Assembly (NCBI GenBank): GCA_045586885.1
Contig: JAZNBE010000016.1
Coordinates: 12,757 to 76,756 of the forward strand
Direction of reading: 5' to 3'
Origin: Christensenellaceae bacterium
GTDB lineage: Bacteria; Bacillota; Clostridia; Christensenellales; Borkfalkiaceae
DNA: 64,000 bases
Within the stretch, counting starts at the first letter, position 1, and each line of letters begins with the position of its first letter. Under the pieces are notes generated by a model that searched no databases, had not been told where the DNA came from, and saw only the letters and a program-made list of their open reading frames with translations. Below are positions 17,116 through 27,416 of the stretch, one piece after another. The position numbers were made by a program, and so were the translations under genes.

Positions 17116-19041
17116 ATGCCGTTTTTACCTATTACTTACAAAGATATGCAAGAGCGCGGTTGGTCGCAACCAGATTTTATCTTGGTAACTGGCGATGCTT
17201 ACGTCGACCACCCTAGTTTTGGCACGGCTATAATTTCTAGGCTTTTAGAGGCTGAGGGCTTTAAGGTTTGCATAATTTCTCAACCGCAAAAGGATAGCGA
17301 TTATTTAGAGTTCGGCGCGCCAAAACTTGGCTTTTTAGTTAATAGCGGGAACTTAGACTGTATGGTAAACGCCTATACTAGCGCGAAAAAGCCACGCTCT
17401 GACGACGCTTATTCACCGGGCGGAAAGTCAGGGTTTAGGCCAGATCGCGCGCTTATAGTTTACTGTAACGCAATAAGAAGGCTTTTTGGCGAAGAAGTTT
17501 TTATAGCAATAGGTGGCTTAGAGGCGTCTTTGCGCCGTTTTGCGCATTACGATTATTGGAGCGATTCGGTTATGCCGTCTATCTTGGTTGATACTAAGGC
17601 AGATATTTTAGCCTACGGTATGGGCGAGCATCAAATGGTTGAAATTGCTAAAAGGCTAAAAAACGGCGAGAAAAAGCAAGCGCTTAACGATATTTTAGGC
17701 ACTTGCTATCTTGTAAAGACGACCGATTACGAGTATCGCTCTTGCGCGGAGTGCCCTTCGTTTGAACTTGTTTCTAAAAACGATGAGAGCGGAAAAAAGC
17801 AATACGCAATATCGGCTAAAATTCAACACCGAGAAGCCGACTCCGTGCGCGGAAAAACCGTTATTCAACGGCATTTTGATAAGATTTTAGTTCAACTTCC
17901 GCCTGCTAAAATTTTAACTACGGAAGAGTTAGATAGGGTTTACGATTTGCCGTATGAAAGAACCTATCACCCAGTTTACGAAAAGTTTGGCGGAGTTCCG
18001 GCGATTGAAGAAGTTAAGTTTTCAATAACTCACGTAAGGGGTTGTTTCGGCGCGTGCAATTTCTGTTCGCTTGCTTATCATCAAGGCAGGATGATTGCCG
18101 TTCGAAGTAAAGAATCAATTATAAAAGAAGCAAAAAAACTTATCGCTATGCCTGATTTTAAGGGCTATATTCACGACGTTGGCGGACCTACCGCTAACTT
18201 TAGGCATTTATCTTGCGAAAAGCAAAAAACGTTAGGGCTTTGCGCCGATAAAAAGTGCTTAGCGCCAAAGGCTTGCCCTAACCTTTACGTTTCTCACCAA
18301 GAATATTTAGATATTTTGCGTGAAATTAGGGCGCTTAAGGGCGTAAAAAAGGTGTTCGTTCGCTCTGGTATTCGCTTTGATTATATTATGCAAGATAAGT
18401 CTTTAGAGTTTTTCGAAGAACTGGTAAAACATCACGTTAGCGGTCAGTTAAAGGTTGCGCCTGAGCATTGTTCTAACCAAGTTTTAGGTTATATGGGTAA
18501 GCCTAATTTCGAAGTGTATTTGAAGTTTAAGAATAAGTTTTACGAACTTACGAAAAAGGTTGGCTTAAAACAGTATTTAGTGCCGTATTTAATGTCTTCT
18601 CATCCGGGTAGCACGTCTAAAGACGCTATTGAACTTGCGCTTTTTCTAAAGAAAGAAAATCTTCATCCACAGCAGGTGCAAGATTTTTACCCAACGCCCG
18701 GAACGCTTGCAACGGCTATGTATTATACGGGTTTAAATCCGCTTGATATGAAACCTGTTTACGTTGCAAAAACGGCGGAAGAGAAAAGAGAACAAAGGGT
18801 TTTATTGCAGTTTTTCAAAAAAGAAAACCAAAAAGAAGTTTATAAAATTTTGATAAAACTTGGGCGTAGAGATTTAATAGGTTCGTCTTGTGATTGCCTT
18901 ATCGACGTTCCAAAAGATATTAAAGAAAATAAGAGCGCAAGCGGAAAAGCAAATACTACTAAAAACAGTAACAAAAAATTTACTCAAAAAACACAAAAAA
19001 ACACTTTTAAAACTGGCAAAAAAACAGGTAAAAAATATTAA
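17116..19041 (+). CDS. YgiQ-family radical SAM protein (UPF0313) with Lys-rich tail
   Basis: N-terminus FLPITYKDMQERGW..PDFILVTGDAYVDHPSFG is characteristic; CxxxCxxC (CFGACNFC). Confidence 0.88.
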   Translation: MPFLPITYKDMQERGWSQPDFILVTGDAYVDHPSFGTAIISRLLEAEGFKVCIISQPQKDSDYLEFGAPKLGFLVNSGNLDCMVNAYTSAKKPRSDDAYSPGGKSGFRPDRALIVYCNAIRRLFGEEVFIAIGGLEASLRRFAHYDYWSDSVMPSILVDTKADILAYGMGEHQMVEIAKRLKNGEKKQALNDILGTCYLVKTTDYEYRSCAECPSFELVSKNDESGKKQYAISAKIQHREADSVRGKTVIQRHFDKILVQLPPAKILTTEELDRVYDLPYERTYHPVYEKFGGVPAIEEVKFSITHVRGCFGACNFCSLAYHQGRMIAVRSKESIIKEAKKLIAMPDFKGYIHDVGGPTANFRHLSCEKQKTLGLCADKKCLAPKACPNLYVSHQEYLDILREIRALKGVKKVFVRSGIRFDYIMQDKSLEFFEELVKHHVSGQLKVAPEHCSNQVLGYMGKPNFEVYLKFKNKFYELTKKVGLKQYLVPYLMSSHPGSTSKDAIELALFLKKENLHPQQVQDFYPTPGTLATAMYYTGLNPLDMKPVYVAKTAEEKREQRVLLQFFKKENQKEVYKILIKLGRRDLIGSSCDCLIDVPKDIKENKSASGKANTTKNSNKKFTQKTQKNTFKTGKKTGKKY

Positions 19042-19059
19042 AAAGTTTTTTGTCTAGCG

Positions 19060-19088
19060 TTGACAAGCGTTTTTTACTGTGCTATAAT
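19060..19088 (+). promoter_or_regulatory. consensus sigma-A promoter of the aromatic operon
   Basis: TTGACA (19060-19065), 17-nt spacer, TATAAT (19083-19088). Confidence 0.8.
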
Positions 19089-19112
19089 GAGAAAAAAGTT
19101 AAGGGGGCTAAT

Positions 19113-19196
19113 ATGAAAAATTTAGCGTCTTTCAACAACTTTTATTTCTATTCTTTCGTTCGCTTTTATTTTGCGGGCTTTGATTTGGTGCAATAA
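19113..19196 (+). CDS. candidate Phe/Tyr-rich leader peptide (27 aa)
   Basis: AAGGGGG RBS; MKNLASFNNFYFYSFVRFYFAGFDLVQ has 7 Phe + 3 Tyr; lies between the promoter and a terminator upstream of pheA. Confidence 0.6.
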   Translation: MKNLASFNNFYFYSFVRFYFAGFDLVQ

Positions 19197-19240
19197 AATA
19201 AGTGGTTAAAGAATAGATTGCAATTTAATTTTTGTATTTT

Positions 19241-19274
19241 GGCGGTTTGTTTTTTAAGCATAACCGCCTTTTTT
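19241..19274 (+). terminator. attenuator terminator upstream of pheA
   Basis: GGCGGTT (19241-19247) pairs with AACCGCC (19262-19268), followed by T6; 40 nt before ATG 19315. Confidence 0.65.
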
Positions 19275-19314
19275 ATAATTTTAAAAGTTATTCTAGTGAG
19301 GCTAGTAGGTTTTT

Positions 19315-20412
19315 ATGGATAAATTAGCTAATGCAAGAGAAAAAATTAATCAAATAAACGAAAAGTTGGCAAAACTTTTCGAAGAGCGTATGGATGCCGT
19401 TCAATTCGTTGCGGAATATAAAAAGGAAAGAGGTCTTCCGGTTTTTGACGCCGTTAGAGAAACCGAAATTTTGCAAAAATGCTCGGCTTTAGTTAAAAAT
19501 AGCGATTATAAGGCTTATTTTATTTCCGTAATGCAAGCCATTATGGAAGTTTCTAAAAACTATCAGCATAGGCTTTTGGAAGGCGTTAAAATTGCTTATA
19601 GCGGTGTTGAGGGCGCGTTTGCGAATATCGCAACTAGAAAAATCTTCCCAGACGGCGAGGCTGTTTCCTATCAAGACTTCCAAAGAACTTACGAAGCCGT
19701 TGAAAAGGGTGAGTGCGATTATTGCGTTTTGCCTATTGAAAATAGTTATGCAGGCGAAGTTGGTCAGGTTTTAGACTTAATGTTTAACGGTTCGCTTTTC
19801 GTCAACGGCGTTTACGTTTTACCAATTTCTCAAAACCTTCTAGGCGTAAAAGGCGCAACCATTAAAGATATTAAAAAAGTAGTTAGTCATCCGCAAGCGT
19901 TATCACAATGCGCCGATTTTATTAAAGAGCACGGCTTTGAAGAAATTAAGGCTACTAACACGGCGGTTGCAGGGCAAAACGTTGCTAGCCTTAACGATAA
20001 ATCAATCGGCGCTATTGCAAGCGTAGAAACCGCTAAGCTTTACGGACTTGACGTTATCGAAAAAGATATAAACGAAAGCGCAACCAACGCCACTCGTTTT
20101 GCCGTTTTCTCAAAAGTTAAAAACGAACAAGAAAAATCCGGCGAAGATAGGTTCTTGCTTATGTTTTCGGTTAAAAACGAAGCAGGCGCATTAGCAAAAG
20201 CCATTAACGTTATAGGCGAAAAGGGTTTTAATATGAAATCGCTTAAATCAAGACCTATGAAAACGCTTGATTGGCAATATTATTTCTATATTGAAGCCGA
20301 AGGCGATTTAACTTCAGCAAGCGCAAAAGAAATGCTAGAAGAATTAAAAAAGCATTGCCAAATGCTAAAGATTGTTGGAACTTTTGGAGTTGATGAAAAT
20401 TTAAGGGGCTAA
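19315..20412 (+). CDS. pheA: bifunctional chorismate mutase / prephenate dehydratase
   Basis: AroQ-type CM N-terminus (REKINQINEKLAKLFEERMD); PDT domain (KIAYSGVEGAFANIA, ENSYAGEV); C-terminal ACT domain. Confidence 0.9.
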   Translation: MDKLANAREKINQINEKLAKLFEERMDAVQFVAEYKKERGLPVFDAVRETEILQKCSALVKNSDYKAYFISVMQAIMEVSKNYQHRLLEGVKIAYSGVEGAFANIATRKIFPDGEAVSYQDFQRTYEAVEKGECDYCVLPIENSYAGEVGQVLDLMFNGSLFVNGVYVLPISQNLLGVKGATIKDIKKVVSHPQALSQCADFIKEHGFEEIKATNTAVAGQNVASLNDKSIGAIASVETAKLYGLDVIEKDINESATNATRFAVFSKVKNEQEKSGEDRFLLMFSVKNEAGALAKAINVIGEKGFNMKSLKSRPMKTLDWQYYFYIEAEGDLTSASAKEMLEELKKHCQMLKIVGTFGVDENLRG

Positions 20413-20415
20413 AAA

Positions 20416-21414
20416 ATGAAAATTTCTTTAAACTTAAAAGAAAACTCTTACGATATTATAGTTGAAAAAGACGCGCTAAAAAACGCCGACAAGTATTTAG
20501 ATTTAAACAGAAAGGTTCTTATCGTAACGGATGAAGGCGTGCCAAGCGTTTATGCTAAAACTATAGAAAAGTTGGCATATAAGCCCGTTATCGTAACAAT
20601 TTGCCAAGGCGAAGAAGCAAAAACGCTAGGAAACTACGAAAAACTTTTGAAAGTTATGCTAGAAAATTCTTTTACTAGAAAAGATGCCGTTTTGGCTGTT
20701 GGCGGAGGCGTTGTAGGTGATTTAGCAGGATTTGTTGCCTCATCTTTTATGCGTGGTGTTGATTTTTATAATATTCCAACCACCGTTTTGTCGCAAGTAG
20801 ATTCTTCTATCGGTGGGAAGACTGCTATTAACTTTTTAGGCGTTAAAAATATCGTTGGGGCTTTTTATCAACCAAAAAAAGTTTTAATCGATACAAATCT
20901 ATTGAAAACGTTACCAAAACGCCAAATTTCTAACGGACTTGTTGAAGCGGTAAAAATGGCGCTAACTTTAGATGAACAACTTTTTGAATTTATAGAAAAC
21001 AATAACGCTTTTGAAAATCTTGAAGAAATTATTACTCGAGCAATTTTAATTAAGAAAAACGTTGTTGAGAGAGATGAAAAAGAAAGTAATTTAAGAAAGG
21101 TTTTAAATTTTGGGCATACTATTGGACACGGAATTGAAACTACGGCTTTAAATATTTATCACGGCGAAGCGGTGGCTTTAGGTATGCTTTATATGTGTTC
21201 AAATAGCGTAAGATTAAGGCTTGAAAAAGTGTTAAAGGCTTTAGAAGTTCCGTTAAAAGTTGAAATTAATTCTCAAGCGGTAATAGAAAAAGCATCTCAC
21301 GATAAAAAGTCTAACGGTAAAAATATTTCCGCCGTTTTCGTTAAAAAGGTAGGAAGTTTTGATTTTATTGACGTTGATGAAAAATTCTTAAAAGAGCGTT
21401 TAACGAGTATATAG
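20416..21414 (+). CDS. aroB: 3-dehydroquinate synthase
   Basis: GGGVVGDLAGFVAS, DSSIGGKTAINF, FGHTIGHGIE motifs. Confidence 0.92.
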   Translation: MKISLNLKENSYDIIVEKDALKNADKYLDLNRKVLIVTDEGVPSVYAKTIEKLAYKPVIVTICQGEEAKTLGNYEKLLKVMLENSFTRKDAVLAVGGGVVGDLAGFVASSFMRGVDFYNIPTTVLSQVDSSIGGKTAINFLGVKNIVGAFYQPKKVLIDTNLLKTLPKRQISNGLVEAVKMALTLDEQLFEFIENNNAFENLEEIITRAILIKKNVVERDEKESNLRKVLNFGHTIGHGIETTALNIYHGEAVALGMLYMCSNSVRLRLEKVLKALEVPLKVEINSQAVIEKASHDKKSNGKNISAVFVKKVGSFDFIDVDEKFLKERLTSI

Positions 21415-21424
21415 AGGGGTTTTT

Positions 21425-22507
21425 ATGAAAAACAGTTTTGGAAATAACTTAATTATTACGCTTTTTGGCGAAAGTCACGGAAAGGCTATTGGTATCGTTT
21501 GCGACGGACTTCCAGCAGGGCTTGAAGTAAATTATAGCCAAATTGAAAGTATGCTTGCAAAAAGAAGACCAGATGGAAAACTTTCAACCAAAAGAATTGA
21601 AAAAGATAATTTTGAAATAGTTAGCGGTGAATTTAACGGCAAAACTACCGGAACTCCGCTTTGCATAATTATTCCAAACGAAAACGTTTCAAGTAAAGAT
21701 TATTCTTACGGCACGGCAAGACCGTCCCACGCGGATTTCGTAGCGTCGGTTAAATACGGCGGTTTTGAAGATTATCGTGGCGGGGGGCATTTTAGCGGTA
21801 GAATAACCGCGCCAATAGTTGCGCTTGGCGCAATTTTGAAAGGCGCGCTTGATAAAAAAGGCGTTAAAGTTGCAACGCATATTAAAAATATTTACGGCGT
21901 TTTAGATAGAGATTTTATTGATATCGATAAAGATATTGAATATTTAGAAAATATAGAATTTGCAACGCTTGACCAAGAACAAGGCAAAAAAATGCAAGAA
22001 CAAATTGTATTAGCACAAGAAGAAGGCGATAGCGTTGGCGGAATATTAGAAACTATTGTAACTGGAATTGACGTAGGCTACGGCGAACCGTGGTTTGACG
22101 GTATTGAAAACGTTATTTCAAAAGCAATGTTTGCAATCCCTGCGGTTAAAGGCGTTGAGTTCGGTTTAGGCTTTTCTTTTGCTAACTTAAAGGGAAGTCA
22201 AGCAAACGACGAGTTTTCGATGATTGACGGAAAGGTTAAAACGTTGACTAATAACAACGGCGGAATTAACGGCGGAATAACTAACGGTATGCCTATCTTG
22301 TTTAGAACGGCAATAAAGCCAACGCCTTCAATTTTCAAAGAGCAAACTACAGTTGATTTTATTAAAGGCGAAACTGTAAAGCACGTAATTTCAGGTAGGC
22401 ACGATCCGTGCATCGTGCAAAGAGCAAAAGTCGTTGTCGATGCGATGACCTATATCGCGCTTGCCGATATTATGGCAATGAAAAACGGAGTGGATTTTTT
22501 GAAGTAA
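21425..22507 (+). CDS. aroC: chorismate synthase
   Basis: FGESHG, RPSHADF, GGGHFSGR, GRHDPC motifs. Confidence 0.95.
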   Translation: MKNSFGNNLIITLFGESHGKAIGIVCDGLPAGLEVNYSQIESMLAKRRPDGKLSTKRIEKDNFEIVSGEFNGKTTGTPLCIIIPNENVSSKDYSYGTARPSHADFVASVKYGGFEDYRGGGHFSGRITAPIVALGAILKGALDKKGVKVATHIKNIYGVLDRDFIDIDKDIEYLENIEFATLDQEQGKKMQEQIVLAQEEGDSVGGILETIVTGIDVGYGEPWFDGIENVISKAMFAIPAVKGVEFGLGFSFANLKGSQANDEFSMIDGKVKTLTNNNGGINGGITNGMPILFRTAIKPTPSIFKEQTTVDFIKGETVKHVISGRHDPCIVQRAKVVVDAMTYIALADIMAMKNGVDFLK

Positions 22508-22508
22508 A

Positions 22509-23759
22509 ATGGAAAAAAACACTAAATACGGACTTATAGGCAGACGTTTGCCTTATAGTTTTTCAAAAATCGTTCACGAAATGATAGGAAAGTATTCCTA
22601 TTCGTTAATAGAACTTGAGCCTGAAATGCTCGATGAATTTTTTACTAAAAAAGAGTTTTTAGGCGTAAACGTTACTATTCCTTATAAGGTGGACGTAATT
22701 AAATATCTTGATTTTGTTGACGAAAGCGCTAAGAAAATAGGCGCGGTAAATACCGTCGTTAATAAAGGCGGAAAACTTTTTGGCTATAATACCGATTTTT
22801 ATGGGTTAAAAGCAACTTTAGAGAGAAGTTCGGTTTCGGTAAAGGGTAAACTTTGCTTAATTTTAGGGACTGGCGCAACTAGTAATACTGCAAATGCGGT
22901 TTTAAAAGAACTTGGCGCAACTAATATTATAAAAGTTTCAAGAACTAAAAGTCAAAACGCAATAACTTATGAAGAGGCTGTTTCAAAATATAATAATGCT
23001 CAAATCATAGTAAACACAACGCCTTGCGGAACGTTTCCAAACGTTAAAGATACGCCGATGAGTTTAGATAATTTTAACAATCTTGAAGGCGTGTTCGACG
23101 TAATTTATAATCCGCTTTGCACGAATTTGACGCTTGCGGGCGCTCAAAAACGCGCCAAAACGGCGTCTGGGCTATATATGTTAGTGTATCAAGCGGTTAA
23201 AACGTGCGAATTTTTCTTAGATACCGTTATTGATAAAACTAAGCCTGATGAAATTTACGAAAAGATTTTGAGAGAAAAGCAAAACGTTGTTTTAACGGGT
23301 ATGCCAACGTGCGGTAAATCAACTATTGGAAAAGAACTTGCTAAAAAACTTGGGCGAGAGTTTATTGACACCGATGAAGAAATAGTTAAATTTGCTAAAA
23401 TGGAAATTAGCGAAATTTTTGAAAAATTTGGCGAGAAAAAGTTTAGAGAAATCGAAACAAAGGTAATTAGCGAATTATCGTCTTCACAAGGGTTAGTTAT
23501 TTCAACCGGCGGTGGAGCGCCTTTAAAAGAAGAAAACGTTTTAGCGCTAAAGAGAAATGGTAAAATCTTTTTTATAGACAGAGACGTAGATAAACTTTTT
23601 GCATCAAATGATAGACCATTGTCTAGTGATATTGAAGCCGTTAAAAAACTTTATAATGCTAGATATTCAACTTATAGCGCCACTTGTGACGTAAAAATTG
23701 ATAACAACGAAAGAGTAGAAGACGCTATTGAAAAAATTTTAAAGGAACTAAATTTATGA
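22509..23759 (+). CDS. aroE: fused shikimate dehydrogenase / shikimate kinase
   Basis: N-terminal AroE-like domain (YGLIGRRLPYSFSKIVH, GAVNTV, NTDFYG); C-terminal P-loop GMPTCGKSTIGKELAKKLGREFIDTD typical of AroK. Confidence 0.88.
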   Translation: MEKNTKYGLIGRRLPYSFSKIVHEMIGKYSYSLIELEPEMLDEFFTKKEFLGVNVTIPYKVDVIKYLDFVDESAKKIGAVNTVVNKGGKLFGYNTDFYGLKATLERSSVSVKGKLCLILGTGATSNTANAVLKELGATNIIKVSRTKSQNAITYEEAVSKYNNAQIIVNTTPCGTFPNVKDTPMSLDNFNNLEGVFDVIYNPLCTNLTLAGAQKRAKTASGLYMLVYQAVKTCEFFLDTVIDKTKPDEIYEKILREKQNVVLTGMPTCGKSTIGKELAKKLGREFIDTDEEIVKFAKMEISEIFEKFGEKKFREIETKVISELSSSQGLVISTGGGAPLKEENVLALKRNGKIFFIDRDVDKLFASNDRPLSSDIEAVKKLYNARYSTYSATCDVKIDNNERVEDAIEKILKELNL

Positions 23760-24184
23760 AAATTTTAGTAATAAACGGACCAAATCTTAATATGCTTGGC
23801 GTTCGTGAACCCGATATTTACGGCAAAACGACTTATGGTGATTTAGTTAGACTAATTGAAGATTATTCAAAGGAAAAAGGCGTTTTCGTTGAATGTTATC
23901 AATCAAACCACGAAGGCGCAATCGTTGATAAAATTCAGCAAGCGTATTTTGATAAGTTTGACGGTATCGTAATAAACCCCGGCGCTTATACGCACACAAG
24001 CGTTGCTATTTTGGACGCGTTAAAAGCCGTTCAAATAAAAGCGGTTGAAGTGCATATTTCTAACGTTGAAAAAAGAGAGCCTTTTAGAAGTATTAGTTTT
24101 ATTCGTGATTATTGCGTTAAAAGCGTAATTGGAAAGGGAATAAACGGCTATTTAGAGGCTATCGATATTTTATTAAACAATTAA
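23756..24184 (+). CDS. aroQ: type II 3-dehydroquinate dehydratase
   Basis: MKILVINGPNLNMLGVREPDIYG, QSNHEG, INPGAYTHTS; ATGA overlap with the upstream gene. Confidence 0.95.
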   Translation: MKILVINGPNLNMLGVREPDIYGKTTYGDLVRLIEDYSKEKGVFVECYQSNHEGAIVDKIQQAYFDKFDGIVINPGAYTHTSVAILDALKAVQIKAVEVHISNVEKREPFRSISFIRDYCVKSVIGKGINGYLEAIDILLNN

Positions 24185-24188
24185 AATT

Positions 24189-25391
24189 ATGAAAGTAAAA
24201 ATTTTACCGTCAAAACTAAATGGTATCTATTTCGCGCCAACGAGTAAGTCAATTGCGCACCGAATGCTAATTTTGGCAAGCATAGAAAAAGGCGAAACGT
24301 TGATAAAAAGAGTTTCATTTTCTAAAGACGTTTTAGCAACCATTGATTGTTTGAAGGCTCTTGGCGTAAAAATAGAAGTTTTTGATGATAGCGTTAAAGT
24401 TTTAGGCGACGGCTTTTCATCCGTTCCAAACGGCGCAATTTTAAATTGCAACGAGAGTGGTAGCACGCTTAGGTTTTTAATTCCGCTTGCGCTTTGTTTT
24501 GATAAAGAAATAACCTTTATCGGCACGGAAAAACTCTTTTCACGTCCGCTTGAAGAATACCAAAAAATTTGTAACGATTATGGCTTTACGTTTGAAAAAG
24601 GAAACTCAAGTTTAAAGGTTAAAGGCAAACTTACGGCAACGAACTTGCAAGTTTTAGGAAATATTAGCAGTCAATATATAACGGGCTTGTTATTTGCTCT
24701 TGTTTATTGCAATAAAGCAAGCGTTTTGAAAATTATTCCGCCTATTGAATCAAAGCCTTATATTGATTTAACACTTAAGGCTATTGAAGATTTTGGAGGA
24801 TTAGTAAATTTTGAAGGGAACGTCATTACGATAAACCCTTCAAAACTAAAAACAGGCGAATTTGAAGTTGAAGCCGATTATTCTTCTTCGGCGTTTATAG
24901 ATGCGTTCAATCTAATAGGTGGGAACGTTTTAGTTAAAAACTTAAACGAGAAATCACTTCAAGCCGATAAAAAATACGTTGAATATTTTAACCTTTTGCA
25001 AAAGGAAAGGGCAGTTTTAGATATTTCTTCTTGCCCAGACCTTGGTCCTGTTTTAATAGCCGTAGCAACTTATTTTCACGGCGCGACCATTTTAGGAACG
25101 AAAAGGCTTAAAATCAAGGAAAGCGATAGAGCGGAAGTTATGAAACAAGAACTCGAAAAGTTCGGCGCTAAAATTTTGGTTTTTGAAGATAAGATTGAAG
25201 TTGAAAAGGTAAATCTTGAAAAACCTAAAAAACTCCTTTCATCTCACAACGACCATAGAATTGCAATGGCGCTATCTGTTATTTGCTCTATTTATGGCGG
25301 TGAAATTGATGGCGCTGAATGTGTTTCTAAATCTTTCCCAACCTATTGGGAAGACGTTGAAAAACTAGGTTTAAAAATTATTAAAGAATAA
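24189..25391 (+). CDS. aroA: 3-phosphoshikimate 1-carboxyvinyltransferase (EPSP synthase)
   Basis: PTSKSIAHRMLILA, ESGSTLRFL, DHRIAMA motifs. Confidence 0.92.
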   Translation: MKVKILPSKLNGIYFAPTSKSIAHRMLILASIEKGETLIKRVSFSKDVLATIDCLKALGVKIEVFDDSVKVLGDGFSSVPNGAILNCNESGSTLRFLIPLALCFDKEITFIGTEKLFSRPLEEYQKICNDYGFTFEKGNSSLKVKGKLTATNLQVLGNISSQYITGLLFALVYCNKASVLKIIPPIESKPYIDLTLKAIEDFGGLVNFEGNVITINPSKLKTGEFEVEADYSSSAFIDAFNLIGGNVLVKNLNEKSLQADKKYVEYFNLLQKERAVLDISSCPDLGPVLIAVATYFHGATILGTKRLKIKESDRAEVMKQELEKFGAKILVFEDKIEVEKVNLEKPKKLLSSHNDHRIAMALSVICSIYGGEIDGAECVSKSFPTYWEDVEKLGLKIIKE

Positions 25392-25399
25392 CGTAAAAT

Positions 25400-25436
25400 A
25401 TAAAAGTTAGGCTATAAGCCCAAAAACAAGAGGTTT
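25400..25436 (+). repeat. 37-nt intercistronic repeat, copy 1 (hairpin + RBS)
   Basis: ATAAAAGTTAGGCTATAAGCCCAAAAACAAGAGGTTT, identical to 26290-26326. Confidence 0.95.
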
Positions 25437-25441
25437 AGAAA

Positions 25442-26293
25442 ATGAATTCAAATAAATGCGTTTTAATCGTTGGACTAGGATTAATTGGTGGAAGTTACGC
25501 AAAAGCTTTGAAAAAACATGGTAAAACCGTTTTTGCAATCGATATCGATGAAAAAGCAATAAATTTTGCGCTAGAGAATAAAATTATAGACGATGGGGAA
25601 ACGGAAGTTTCTTCTAGGCTTTTAGAAAAAGCTGACGTGGTTGTATTCGCTCTTTATCCGTCGGTTTTAGTTGAGTGGATAAAGAAAAACCAAAATTTTA
25701 TAAAACCCGGCGCAATATTAACTGACGTAACAGGTGTAAAAAGTGGAGTTGTTGAAGAAATTCAGTCAATTTTGAGAAGTGATATTGAGTTTATCTCCGC
25801 TCACCCTATGGCAGGGCGTGAAATGAGTGGCGTTGAAAATAGCGATGATGCAATTTTTAAAAACGCTAACTATATAGTAGTGCCAACCAAGAAAAACAGG
25901 CCGTCGACAATCGAGTGGTGCAAAGATTTTGGAAAAATTTTAGGCTTTTCGCAAATTAGCGAATTATCAATTCACGAGCACGATAAAATGATAGGCTTTT
26001 TATCTCAACTAACGCACGTTATTGCAATATCTTTAATGACTTGTAACGACGATGATAGGTTACCGCTCTATACCGGCGATTCTTTTAGAGATTTAACTAG
26101 GATTGCGCGTATAAACGATAAGATGTGGAGCGAACTATTCTTAATGAATAAGGAAGAGTTAGTTTGCCAAATTGACATGTTTTTAGAAGAAATGACTCAA
26201 ATTAAAAGTCTTTTGCAAAACGGTGATAGAGAAGGCTTAAGAGAGAAAATGAAACTATCAACAAGAAGAAGAGCAGACTTTGATAAAAAATAA
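25442..26293 (+). CDS. tyrA: prephenate dehydrogenase
   Basis: Rossmann N-terminus IVGLGLIGGSYAKAL; HPMAGRE motif. Confidence 0.88.
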   Translation: MNSNKCVLIVGLGLIGGSYAKALKKHGKTVFAIDIDEKAINFALENKIIDDGETEVSSRLLEKADVVVFALYPSVLVEWIKKNQNFIKPGAILTDVTGVKSGVVEEIQSILRSDIEFISAHPMAGREMSGVENSDDAIFKNANYIVVPTKKNRPSTIEWCKDFGKILGFSQISELSIHEHDKMIGFLSQLTHVIAISLMTCNDDDRLPLYTGDSFRDLTRIARINDKMWSELFLMNKEELVCQIDMFLEEMTQIKSLLQNGDREGLREKMKLSTRRRADFDKK

Positions 26294-26326
26294 AAGTTAG
26301 GCTATAAGCCCAAAAACAAGAGGTTT
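26290..26326 (+). repeat. 37-nt intercistronic repeat, copy 2
   Basis: Exact copy of 25400-25436, overlaps the tyrA stop and supplies the RBS of the next gene. Confidence 0.95.
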
Positions 26327-26333
26327 TACTATT

Positions 26334-27365
26334 ATGAATATGATTTTTGAGAGAAAACTTGCAATACCGATGGAAGTTAAAGAAAAGTATCCGTTATCTA
26401 ATGAACTTACCGATTTGGTTATAAAAAGAAACGAAGAAATTAAGGCGATTTTCGAAGGCAAAGACGATAGGTTAATTCTTATTATCGGTCCTTGCTCAGC
26501 GGATAGGGAAGATAGCGTTTTAGATTATATTTCAAGACTTCAAAAAGTTCAAGAAAAGGTTAAAGATAAAATTTTTATTATTCCTAGAATTTATACTAAC
26601 AAGCCAAGAACTACTGGAGAAGGTTACAAGGGGCTTTTGCATCAACCAAATCCGCGCGAAAAGCCTGATATGTTAAAGGGCGTTATCGCAATAAGAGAAC
26701 TTCATCTTCGCGCGCTTAAGGAAACCGGTTTTTCTTGCGCCGATGAAATGCTTTACCCTGAAAACTATAAATATTTAGACGACTTGCTCGCTTACGTTGC
26801 GGTAGGGGCTAGGTCGGTTGAAAACCAACAACACCGCTTAACCGCTAGCGGAATTGAAGTGCCCGTTGGTATGAAAAACCCAACCGGTGGCGATTTATCG
26901 GTTATGATGAACGCAATTTACGCCGCTCAGCATAAACACACGTTTATTTATCGTGGTTGGGAAGCGCATTCTCAAGGTAACCCTTTAGCGCACGCAATTT
27001 TAAGAGGTTATATGAATAAGCACGGAAATTGTATTCCAAACTATCACTATGAAGATTTAATACATTTGACCGAACTTTACCAAAGCGGAAATTCCCAAAA
27101 CCCTGCATTAATAGTTGACACTAACCACGCAAACTCTAATAAAAATGCGTTTGAGCAAATTAGAATTGTAAAAGAAGTGTTAGAAAGCGCAGATTATAAT
27201 AAAGATATTAGAAAAATGCTAAAAGGCTTTATGATTGAAAGTTATATTTTAGACGGCAAACAAGATATTTCAGGCGATGAATACGGAAAGTCTATAACGG
27301 ATGCTTGTCTTGGCTGGGAAAAGAGTGAAAGATTAATTTTCGATATTGCCGATAGTTTAAAATAA
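26334..27365 (+). CDS. aroF: 3-deoxy-7-phosphoheptulonate (DAHP) synthase, class I
   Basis: IIGPCSADRED, KPRTT..YKGLL.QP, HRLTASG motifs; ~343 aa. Confidence 0.88.
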   Translation: MNMIFERKLAIPMEVKEKYPLSNELTDLVIKRNEEIKAIFEGKDDRLILIIGPCSADREDSVLDYISRLQKVQEKVKDKIFIIPRIYTNKPRTTGEGYKGLLHQPNPREKPDMLKGVIAIRELHLRALKETGFSCADEMLYPENYKYLDDLLAYVAVGARSVENQQHRLTASGIEVPVGMKNPTGGDLSVMMNAIYAAQHKHTFIYRGWEAHSQGNPLAHAILRGYMNKHGNCIPNYHYEDLIHLTELYQSGNSQNPALIVDTNHANSNKNAFEQIRIVKEVLESADYNKDIRKMLKGFMIESYILDGKQDISGDEYGKSITDACLGWEKSERLIFDIADSLK

Positions 27366-27377
27366 TAAAATAAAAAA

Positions 27378-27407
27378 ACATAGACTAACGCGGTCTATGT
27401 TTTTTTA
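27378..27407. terminator. bidirectional terminator between convergent genes
   Basis: ACATAGAC-loop-GTCTATGT stem with A7 before and T7 after. Confidence 0.8.
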
Positions 27408-27416
27408 CGTCTTAAA

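Follow-up and report, generated by a model that had tools for sequence, protein, structure and literature searches.

A predicted Phe/Tyr leader-peptide attenuator upstream of the pheA-first aromatic operon of a Christensenellaceae bacterium

How is the synthesis of aromatic amino acids controlled in an uncultured gut bacterium whose pathway genes are gathered in a single operon? The question is raised by a 64,000-nucleotide stretch of contig JAZNBE010000016.1 (assembly GCA_045586885.1, Christensenellaceae bacterium), the whole of which we refer to as the window; here, an eight-gene operon that opens with pheA is preceded by a short open reading frame (ORF), rich in Phe and Tyr codons, and by an intrinsic terminator. 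An initial annotation, made from the sequence alone, had read this arrangement as ribosome-mediated attenuation. Given the sequence elements themselves, the competing RNA pairings that they can form, their conservation in a close relative and the recurrence of like elements upstream of pheA in other Clostridia, we consider it very likely that the pheA leader is a four-segment ribosome-mediated transcription attenuator, sensing charged tRNA-Phe and tRNA-Tyr.

The upstream neighbour, a gene for a YgiQ-type radical SAM protein, ends at 19041, and between it and the leader ORF lies a sigma-70-type promoter (19060–19088; plus strand, as are all window features below unless stated otherwise). TTGACA (19060–19065) and TATAAT (19083–19088) are separated by a 17-nt spacer that ends in the TG of an extended promoter; the site scores 12/12, and is the sole promoter-like site in the interval 18600–19700. 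The transcript probably starts near 19095, ~7 nt past TATAAT, and is provided with a ribosome-binding site (RBS), AAGGGGG (19101–19107), 5 nt 5' of the ATG at 19113. The ORF itself (19113–19196) has 27 codons and encodes MKNLASFNNFYFYSFVRFYFAGFDLVQ, followed by a stop; within codons 7–23, there are seven for Phe (7, 10, 12, 15, 18, 20 and 23) and three for Tyr (11, 13 and 19), and the peptide includes the run NFYFYSF. This is a cluster of codons for the end products of the operon, which makes both Phe (via pheA) and Tyr (via tyrA). Downstream, the hairpin GGCGGTT...AACCGCC (GGCGGUUUGUUU/AAGCA-U-AACCGCC; 19241–19268) and the adjoining T6 tract (19269–19274) form an intrinsic terminator, the end of which is 40 nt from the pheA ATG (19315). 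The layout is that expected of an attenuator: a short ORF, furnished with an RBS and a start codon of its own, follows the promoter and precedes the first structural gene, from which an intrinsic terminator separates it. Promoter, RBS, Phe/Tyr-rich ORF and terminator had all been named in the initial annotation, and each was verified at its coordinates.

The RNA that runs from the middle of the ORF to the end of the terminator can be divided into four regions. Region 1 (UCUAUUCUUU, 19147–19156) coincides with codons 12–15 (F-Y-S-F), and provides the 5' strand of a 1:2 'protector' hairpin in minimum free energy (MFE) folds; region 2 (AAAGAAUAGAUUGC, 19208–19221), which begins AAAGAAUAGA, is the partner of either region 1 or region 3; region 3 (GGCGGUUUGUUUUUU, 19241–19255) contributes the 5' arm and the loop of the terminator; and region 4 (AAGCAUAACCGCC, 19256–19274) contributes its 3' arm together with the U6 tract (19269–19274). 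The 1:2 hairpin (19147–19217) has a folding energy of -17.6 kcal/mol, and the terminator (3:4) one of -12.8 kcal/mol alone and -16.0 kcal/mol with its flanks, whereas the 2:3 antiterminator, which comprises 14 bp between 19208–19221 and 19242–19255, has one of -9.8 kcal/mol. Folding of the leader in silico, which the initial annotation had proposed as a check, reveals that an antiterminator does compete with the terminator, and that the three helices (1:2, 2:3 and 3:4) are mutually exclusive. Moreover, the segment bearing the antiterminator (19197–19259) folds at -13.9 kcal/mol, as against -6.0 ± 1.9 kcal/mol for dinucleotide shuffles, and none of the 500 shuffles is equally stable.

The effect of translation on these helices was modelled by giving the ribosome a 30-nt unpaired footprint, and stepping its A site codon by codon with folding at equilibrium. 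Whether no ribosome is present or one sits at the stop codon, the terminator has a probability of 0.94; this drops to 0.00–0.4 only with the A site on codons ~9–16 (NFYFYSFV), and the outcome is alike under four different footprint sizes. The antiterminator is, in silico, dependent on the position of the ribosome. As a control, the stretch between codon 9 and the terminator was shuffled 120 times: the native switch score is 0.94, the best shuffle reaches 0.83, and only one of the 120 exceeds 0.5. Within the terms of this model, the leader follows the same three-state logic as do the trp, phe and his attenuators.

A close relative of this pheA (87% identity) was found in only one of 40 related genomes, hereafter G001, the window's own genome (1.43 Mb in 52 contigs) being G000. 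The G001 gene has the same promoter, with both hexamers kept, the same helices and an in-frame leader encoding MKNLVSSHNFYFYSFVRYYFAGFSFCAKK, again followed by a stop; the counterpart of the leader RBS, in the same position, is GAGGTGG. The leader frame and its core are, therefore, kept in a relative, which was another check that the initial annotation had put forward. Between the two genomes, identity is 47% at four-fold degenerate pheA sites and 42% in the spacer that separates terminator and pheA, whereas it reaches 98% in leader codons 9–23 (44/45, the sole change being Phe to Tyr, with third positions all unchanged) and 91% in the interval from the stop codon to the terminator; region 2 is 100% conserved. 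Since such identities of 98% and 91% are found where neutral sites stand at ~45%, the comparison indicates that purifying selection acts strongly on the nucleotide sequence of the leader. The MFE structure of the G001 leader includes the antiterminator (2:3), and its terminator is predicted only with a ribosome on the last codons or the stop.

Elements of similar design recur upstream of pheA in other Clostridia. A JGI metagenome scan with pheA returned no relatives; proteins 57–66% identical to that of the window are numerous in public assemblies, and on contigs, unrelated to one another, that carry some of these homologs, as well as at a further genome locus (L033; pheA 52% identical), other Phe/Tyr-rich leaders with terminators lie 5' of pheA. 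Their peptides include MLSNNYNYYFYFNIEMDYCILPNANV, MFNNKSFYFYFITEMDCCVVPSLNA, MKTNNANNFFFTFARWYAGFYCRAEKI, ...SFFAGFYSFYYYYF... and MKSVCYNNFAFSYYFSTAYYYGGAI. A sample of 399 Clostridia species contained 54 with a window-type pheA (E<=1e-95), for which 53 upstream regions were retrieved. When a leader was defined as an RBS-preceded short ORF with at least six Phe/Tyr/Trp in 10 codons, a Phe/Tyr-rich leader ORF was present upstream of pheA in 23 of the 53 species versus none of the 53 antisense strands that served as the control, the sampled species being mutually related and the counts not independent. A terminator stands before pheA in 22 of the 23 leader-bearing species, and in some relatives pheA is found mid-operon, after aroC. 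The leader peptides belong to at least six families, with little in common beyond codons for Phe and Tyr. Inside a given family, those non-aromatic stretches that are conserved fall on RNA strands able to base-pair with a terminator arm: the K-L-L-V codons (GUUACUUGUGAG) pair with CUCACUUGUAAC, and in the family formed by L046, L047 and L054, the GAG/GAA-AUG-GA of the leader pairs with the 5' arm of the terminator (UCCGUCUC/UCCAUUUC), where compensatory changes are seen.

A more distant resemblance was also observed. The divergent leaders L052, L049, L053 and L104 have in common with the window a peptide core, F-[FY]-A-G-F, with GCGGGCUUU-like nucleotides, and a region-2-like motif, (U/A)UAA(A/G)G..UAGA, past the ORF; the latter is displayed by a MAFFT alignment with these four leaders, which is too loose for counting pairs. 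Together, the core and the motif hint that these attenuators share a deep ancestor, or else that the RNA or nascent peptide is further constrained.

From the arrangement at the pheA locus, we infer that the leader is translated, that ribosomes stall within it, and that the operon thereby responds to Phe and Tyr. Translation of the leader would proceed while RNA polymerase moves ahead. With Phe and Tyr plentiful, the ribosome would pass codons 10–23 and be released at the UAA, whereupon region 1 would pair with region 2, leaving region 3 free for region 4; the terminator would then form, and transcription would end 40 nt before pheA. Termination would likewise be expected if the leader were not translated. 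With either Phe-tRNA or Tyr-tRNA scarce, the ribosome would stall with its A site on codons 9–16 and cover region 1; region 2, left free, would engage region 3 through the 14-bp pairing, the terminator would not form, and the eight-gene operon would be transcribed.

Several points weigh against this mechanism. The exact leader is common only to one close relative, G001, and is near-identical there in the paired regions, so that the helices of the window itself are too invariant for covariation. All of the antiterminator pairs are A–U and G–U, with the exception of two G–C, and taken alone it is weaker than the terminator (-9.8 versus -12.8 kcal/mol), which would require the switch to rely on kinetics that are beyond the view of equilibrium folding. 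Additionally, region 2 begins 12 nt past the stop codon, and a terminating ribosome would, therefore, itself leave region 2 uncovered, unlike in G001. Lastly, no switching was seen in the equilibrium scan of several other leader families, which have very strong terminators. The same scan gave no switch, and no clear antiterminator, for a second leader of the G000 genome that is described below. We take the missing switch in these cases as a limit of equilibrium folding, rather than as counter-evidence to the leaders concerned.

This second leader emerged from a scan of the whole 1.43 Mb genome, in which 40 short RBS-preceded ORFs have at least six Phe/Tyr/Trp per 10 codons. A terminator follows only two of them, namely, the pheA leader and one that precedes a transporter gene; the arrangement at pheA is thus beyond what chance would provide. 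The transporter leader, which encodes MRRSYYYYFNRFVF and a stop, lies outside the window (G000:C13:204-248, within G000:C13:150-420, or locus L109:150-420), behind a TTGACA/TATAAT promoter and before a gene for a 513-aa sodium:solute symporter (SSF, PF00474). Its terminator is CGGCTTTGC-TCAA-GCAAAGCCG, followed by a T run. In G001, the leader is kept as MKRFNYYYYFNRYGF, with its stop, and the terminator stem has undergone compensatory G–C to A–U changes. It is probably an attenuator of an aromatic amino-acid importer, similar to the published uORF-12 motif that is discussed below, and a biosynthesis operon and a transporter that are each placed behind a Phe/Tyr leader would look like what is expected of a Phe/Tyr regulon. 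A Leu/Thr-rich ORF of 57 codons on contig C40 was also considered as a leader, and was rejected for having no downstream gene on its own strand. A 15-mer, GGTTTGTTTTTTAAG, occurs exactly both in the 5' arm of the window terminator (19244–19258) and at the end of the transporter leader ORF (G000:C13:235-249); since a third copy is found in an unrelated spacer (G000:C35:45294-45308), the sharing may be due to chance in T-rich DNA, or else the sequence may be a common module.

Could the pheA switch be real, but be set by something other than a ribosome? An RNA-binding protein, a metabolite-binding RNA or uncharged tRNA might act on the helices, with the Phe/Tyr ORF as a by-product of U-rich structural RNA. 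In favour of this are the fully conserved third positions of codons 9–23 in G000 and G001, which show that the RNA, and not the peptide alone, is constrained, and the recurrence of the GCGGGCUUU motif ('AGF') in several leader families. Nevertheless, we judge this improbable. A cmscan of 18500–19800 at E<=10 found no T-box, in keeping with the initial annotation, and returned only chance-level matches to unrelated Rfam families; the T-box model RF00230 was unmatched at the pheA locus, and 20 related leaders matched nothing in Rfam 15 at E<=0.01. A T-box, riboswitch or other known RNA family was rejected on these grounds, as was TRAP control of the pheA operon, a gene for TRAP (TrpBP) not having been found in G000. 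Moreover, what at least six unrelated families have in common is an RBS-preceded ATG and an open frame that includes Phe/Tyr codons, the antisense count being 0/53, and the positions at which the switch is predicted are exactly those of the Phe/Tyr codons.

It is less probable still, and in our estimation very unlikely, that the locus is not regulated at all, and that a chance ORF in T-rich DNA happens to precede a hairpin that is a leaky constitutive terminator or a stabilizing structure. The genome is AT-rich, and 40 aromatic-rich short ORFs with an RBS-like motif occur in it; but the two that are followed by a terminator both stand before genes linked to aromatic amino acids, and the pheA leader is separated from the upstream gene by a perfect promoter. 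Conservation of 98% and 91%, where neutral sites have ~45%, similar elements at 23 of the 53 related loci and a switch score above that of all 120 shuffles are equally difficult to reconcile with an inert sequence. The conservation of some non-aromatic residues within families (FAGF and AMKKLLV) would suit an ORF that encodes a functional small hydrophobic peptide, for instance a membrane peptide, having no connection with control of the operon; yet the families are unrelated apart from their Phe/Tyr content, the conserved non-aromatic stretches are the RNA strands that pair with the terminator, as with GUUACUUGUGAG (K-L-L-V) and CUCACUUGUAAC, and the ORF is always placed between promoter and terminator upstream of pheA, such that we give this explanation hardly any credence. 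Ribosome-mediated attenuation is, therefore, the reading that we retain.

The operon under its putative control was assigned from Pfam domains, and begins with pheA (CM_2, PDT and ACT domains; 19315–20412), followed by aroB (20416–21414), aroC (21425–22507), an aroE-aroK fusion (22509–23759), aroQ (23756–24184), aroA (24189–25391), tyrA (25442–26293) and, as the last of the eight genes, that for DAHP synthase (26334–27365). Across 19315–27365, intergenic gaps are no longer than 50 nt, no convincing plus-strand terminator was found within the operon, and a bidirectional terminator (27370–27408; unstranded) closes it after the DAHP synthase gene. The proposal that the whole eight-gene pathway is governed as one unit sits well with the single promoter, the lack of a convincing internal terminator and the terminator after the last gene. 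Two identical copies of a 37-nt cassette (ATAAAAGTTAGGCTATAAGCCCAAAAACAAGAGGTTT) are present, at 25400–25436 before tyrA and at 26290–26326 before the DAHP synthase gene, where they fill the only two long gaps of the operon with a small GGCTATAAGCC hairpin and then an RBS. The cassette was rejected as a plus-strand terminator, and may serve in processing or stability, or in the initiation of translation.

Elsewhere in G000, six T-boxes were found, which precede aspS, ileS, thrS, a trpB-like gene and two acyl-CoA-synthetase-like genes. The last two of these T-boxes (G000:C49:1241-1472 and G000:C17:21990-22227; L042 and L044) stand before paralogous genes for proteins of ~760 aa that, by eye, read as an XRE-type helix-turn-helix and a cupin-like domain fused to an AMP-dependent acyl-CoA-synthetase-like domain; such genes are unusual as targets of a T-box. 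As regards the transporter, homologs of the symporter in G026, G037, G032 and G025 (L115, L117, L118 and L121) have purine-rich repeats upstream, for example GTAGTATGGnAGGATGGTAG, composed of AUGG/UAGG units. Of these genomes, G026 and G032 have a TRAP gene (PF02081), whereas none was found in G025 and G037; some of these purine-repeat transporter loci in Christensenellales may thus be under TRAP control.

The distribution of the pheA-first operon is uneven. Among 23 sampled genomes of the same genus (g1), a window-type pheA is found only in G000, G001 and G013, the others having mostly a distant aroC-pheA arrangement or no pheA; with just three of 23 genomes so endowed, it is probable that the operon, together with its leader, reached the G000/G001 lineage by horizontal transfer. 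Several of the pheA genes nearest to that of the window (57–60% identity) have no leader ORF, specifically those in G343, G400, G320, G177 and two metagenome-assembled genomes (L032, L034 and L058–L061). At these loci, one to three GTTAAC-N3-GTTAAC palindromes lie between the promoter and the start codon; judged by sequence, they look like candidate operators for a DNA-binding repressor of the aromatic operon.

What, then, does the element add to what is known? It gives a correct regulatory annotation to the aromatic operon of an uncultured gut Christensenellales bacterium, and it strengthens the case that Phe/Tyr leader-peptide attenuation is one common control of the pathway in Clostridia, beside T-boxes, TRAP and DNA-binding repressors, given that ~40% of the sampled species with a window-type pheA bear such a leader. 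The class has no Rfam model and no bench test in the literature searched, and a curated model would, therefore, be useful. As a discovery, the element is unsurprising, in that leader-peptide attenuation is textbook material for Proteobacteria and the class to which the window belongs was predicted in 2019.

That prediction concerns the 'aromatic amino acid attenuators' uORF-12 and uORF-13, found from Clostridium novyi (Stav et al. 2019, BMC Microbiol 19:66, PMC6429828; Fig. 6b, Additional files 1 Table S1, 3). Together they have about 1,600 representatives in Firmicutes. The former, counted 1,258 times as unique representatives from Bacilli, Clostridia and Erysipelotrichia, lies mostly before amino-acid transporters and in some cases before shikimate genes, whereas the latter has 336 representatives before aroF, tyrA and other shikimate genes, and consists of a short ORF with a conserved F-Y-F, then a terminator; both motifs are explicitly compared by their authors to the trp attenuator (PMC6429828). 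Hence, of the two parts of the original proposal, attenuation is upheld in silico by the competing helices, the switch that depends on ribosome position, the conservation and the recurrence in relatives, whereas the suggestion that it would be a notable regulatory solution for the lineage does not hold, Phe/Tyr uORF attenuators having already been reported as widespread in Firmicutes, including Clostridia (PMC6429828). Like uORF-12 and uORF-13, the window has an RBS-preceded F-Y-F or F-Y-rich ORF and an intrinsic terminator before shikimate, Phe/Tyr or transporter genes in a Firmicute, and the contexts of uORF-13 and uORF-12 are mirrored by the operon leader and the transporter leader, respectively. 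It differs in that pheA is the first gene and DAHP synthase the last, and in that the published consensus places F-Y-F in the P1 loop, or the peptide directly ahead of P1, whereas in the window the 5' strand of the 1:2 hairpin is made up of the F-Y-S-F codons. By every feature described, the element is of the uORF-12/-13 kind, the comparison being one of descriptions rather than of alignments; no Rfam 15 model for either motif matched the window leader or the 20 related leaders. A candidate separate family, comprising the leaders of the window, G001, L052 and G212, has the core F-x-R-[FWY]-Y-(F)-A-G-F and a GGCGGUU terminator arm. We raise as a tentative and rather doubtful possibility that the window leader represents a family distinct from uORF-12/-13, which moved horizontally with the pheA-first operon into one small Christensenellales lineage and forms, with the SSF transporter leader, a purely leader-peptide Phe/Tyr regulon. 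If so, the conserved A-G-F and the fixed third positions would mean that the RNA or nascent peptide is constrained by more than simple codon sensing.

The pheL-pheA-type attenuators, which we take to be those of the Rfam family Phe_leader, provide a parallel in design. As in the pheL-pheA (and pheM-pheST) attenuators of E. coli and other Gammaproteobacteria, the window has a Phe-codon leader, helices 1:2, 2:3 and 3:4, and a terminator before a pheA that encodes a bifunctional chorismate mutase-prephenate dehydratase. Leader-peptide attenuation of pheL-pheA is established in Proteobacteria (PMC3082878). There is, however, no match in sequence or structure, and the window leader mixes Phe with Tyr codons and, rather than pheA alone, would control the entire common pathway as well as tyrA; given the different phylum, it probably arose independently of pheL. 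Among Gram-positive bacteria, the aroR leader, reportedly described by Neshat et al. 2014, is likewise an aromatic-rich leader that controls a DAHP synthase/shikimate gene by attenuation, albeit in Actinobacteria. According to Stav et al. (PMC6429828), this leader, located 5' of aroF in Corynebacterium glutamicum, stands apart from the motifs of Firmicutes in both structure and phylogeny. Brewer et al. 2021 (PMC8632094) describe uORFC-13-1, upstream of aroF in Acholeplasma, in which a Phe-codon uORF is accompanied by promoter, RBS and a neighbouring terminator; the motif resembles the window in having all of these before a shikimate-pathway gene, and differs in that its reports come from Acholeplasma and environmental sequences alone, in having a U run that encodes at least one Phe, and in that no Tyr richness is described. 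His leader peptides, which are known from the B. cereus group (PMC2965389), and from Peptostreptococcaceae, Lutispora and Erysipelotrichales (PMC9413887), involve another amino acid, another operon and unrelated sequences, but they too exemplify 'regular' leader-peptide attenuation in place of T-boxes or repressors in several Firmicute lineages. Overall, we conclude that the element adds one member to a class that had been predicted before and that many Clostridia share, and that it may constitute a sequence family of its own within this class.

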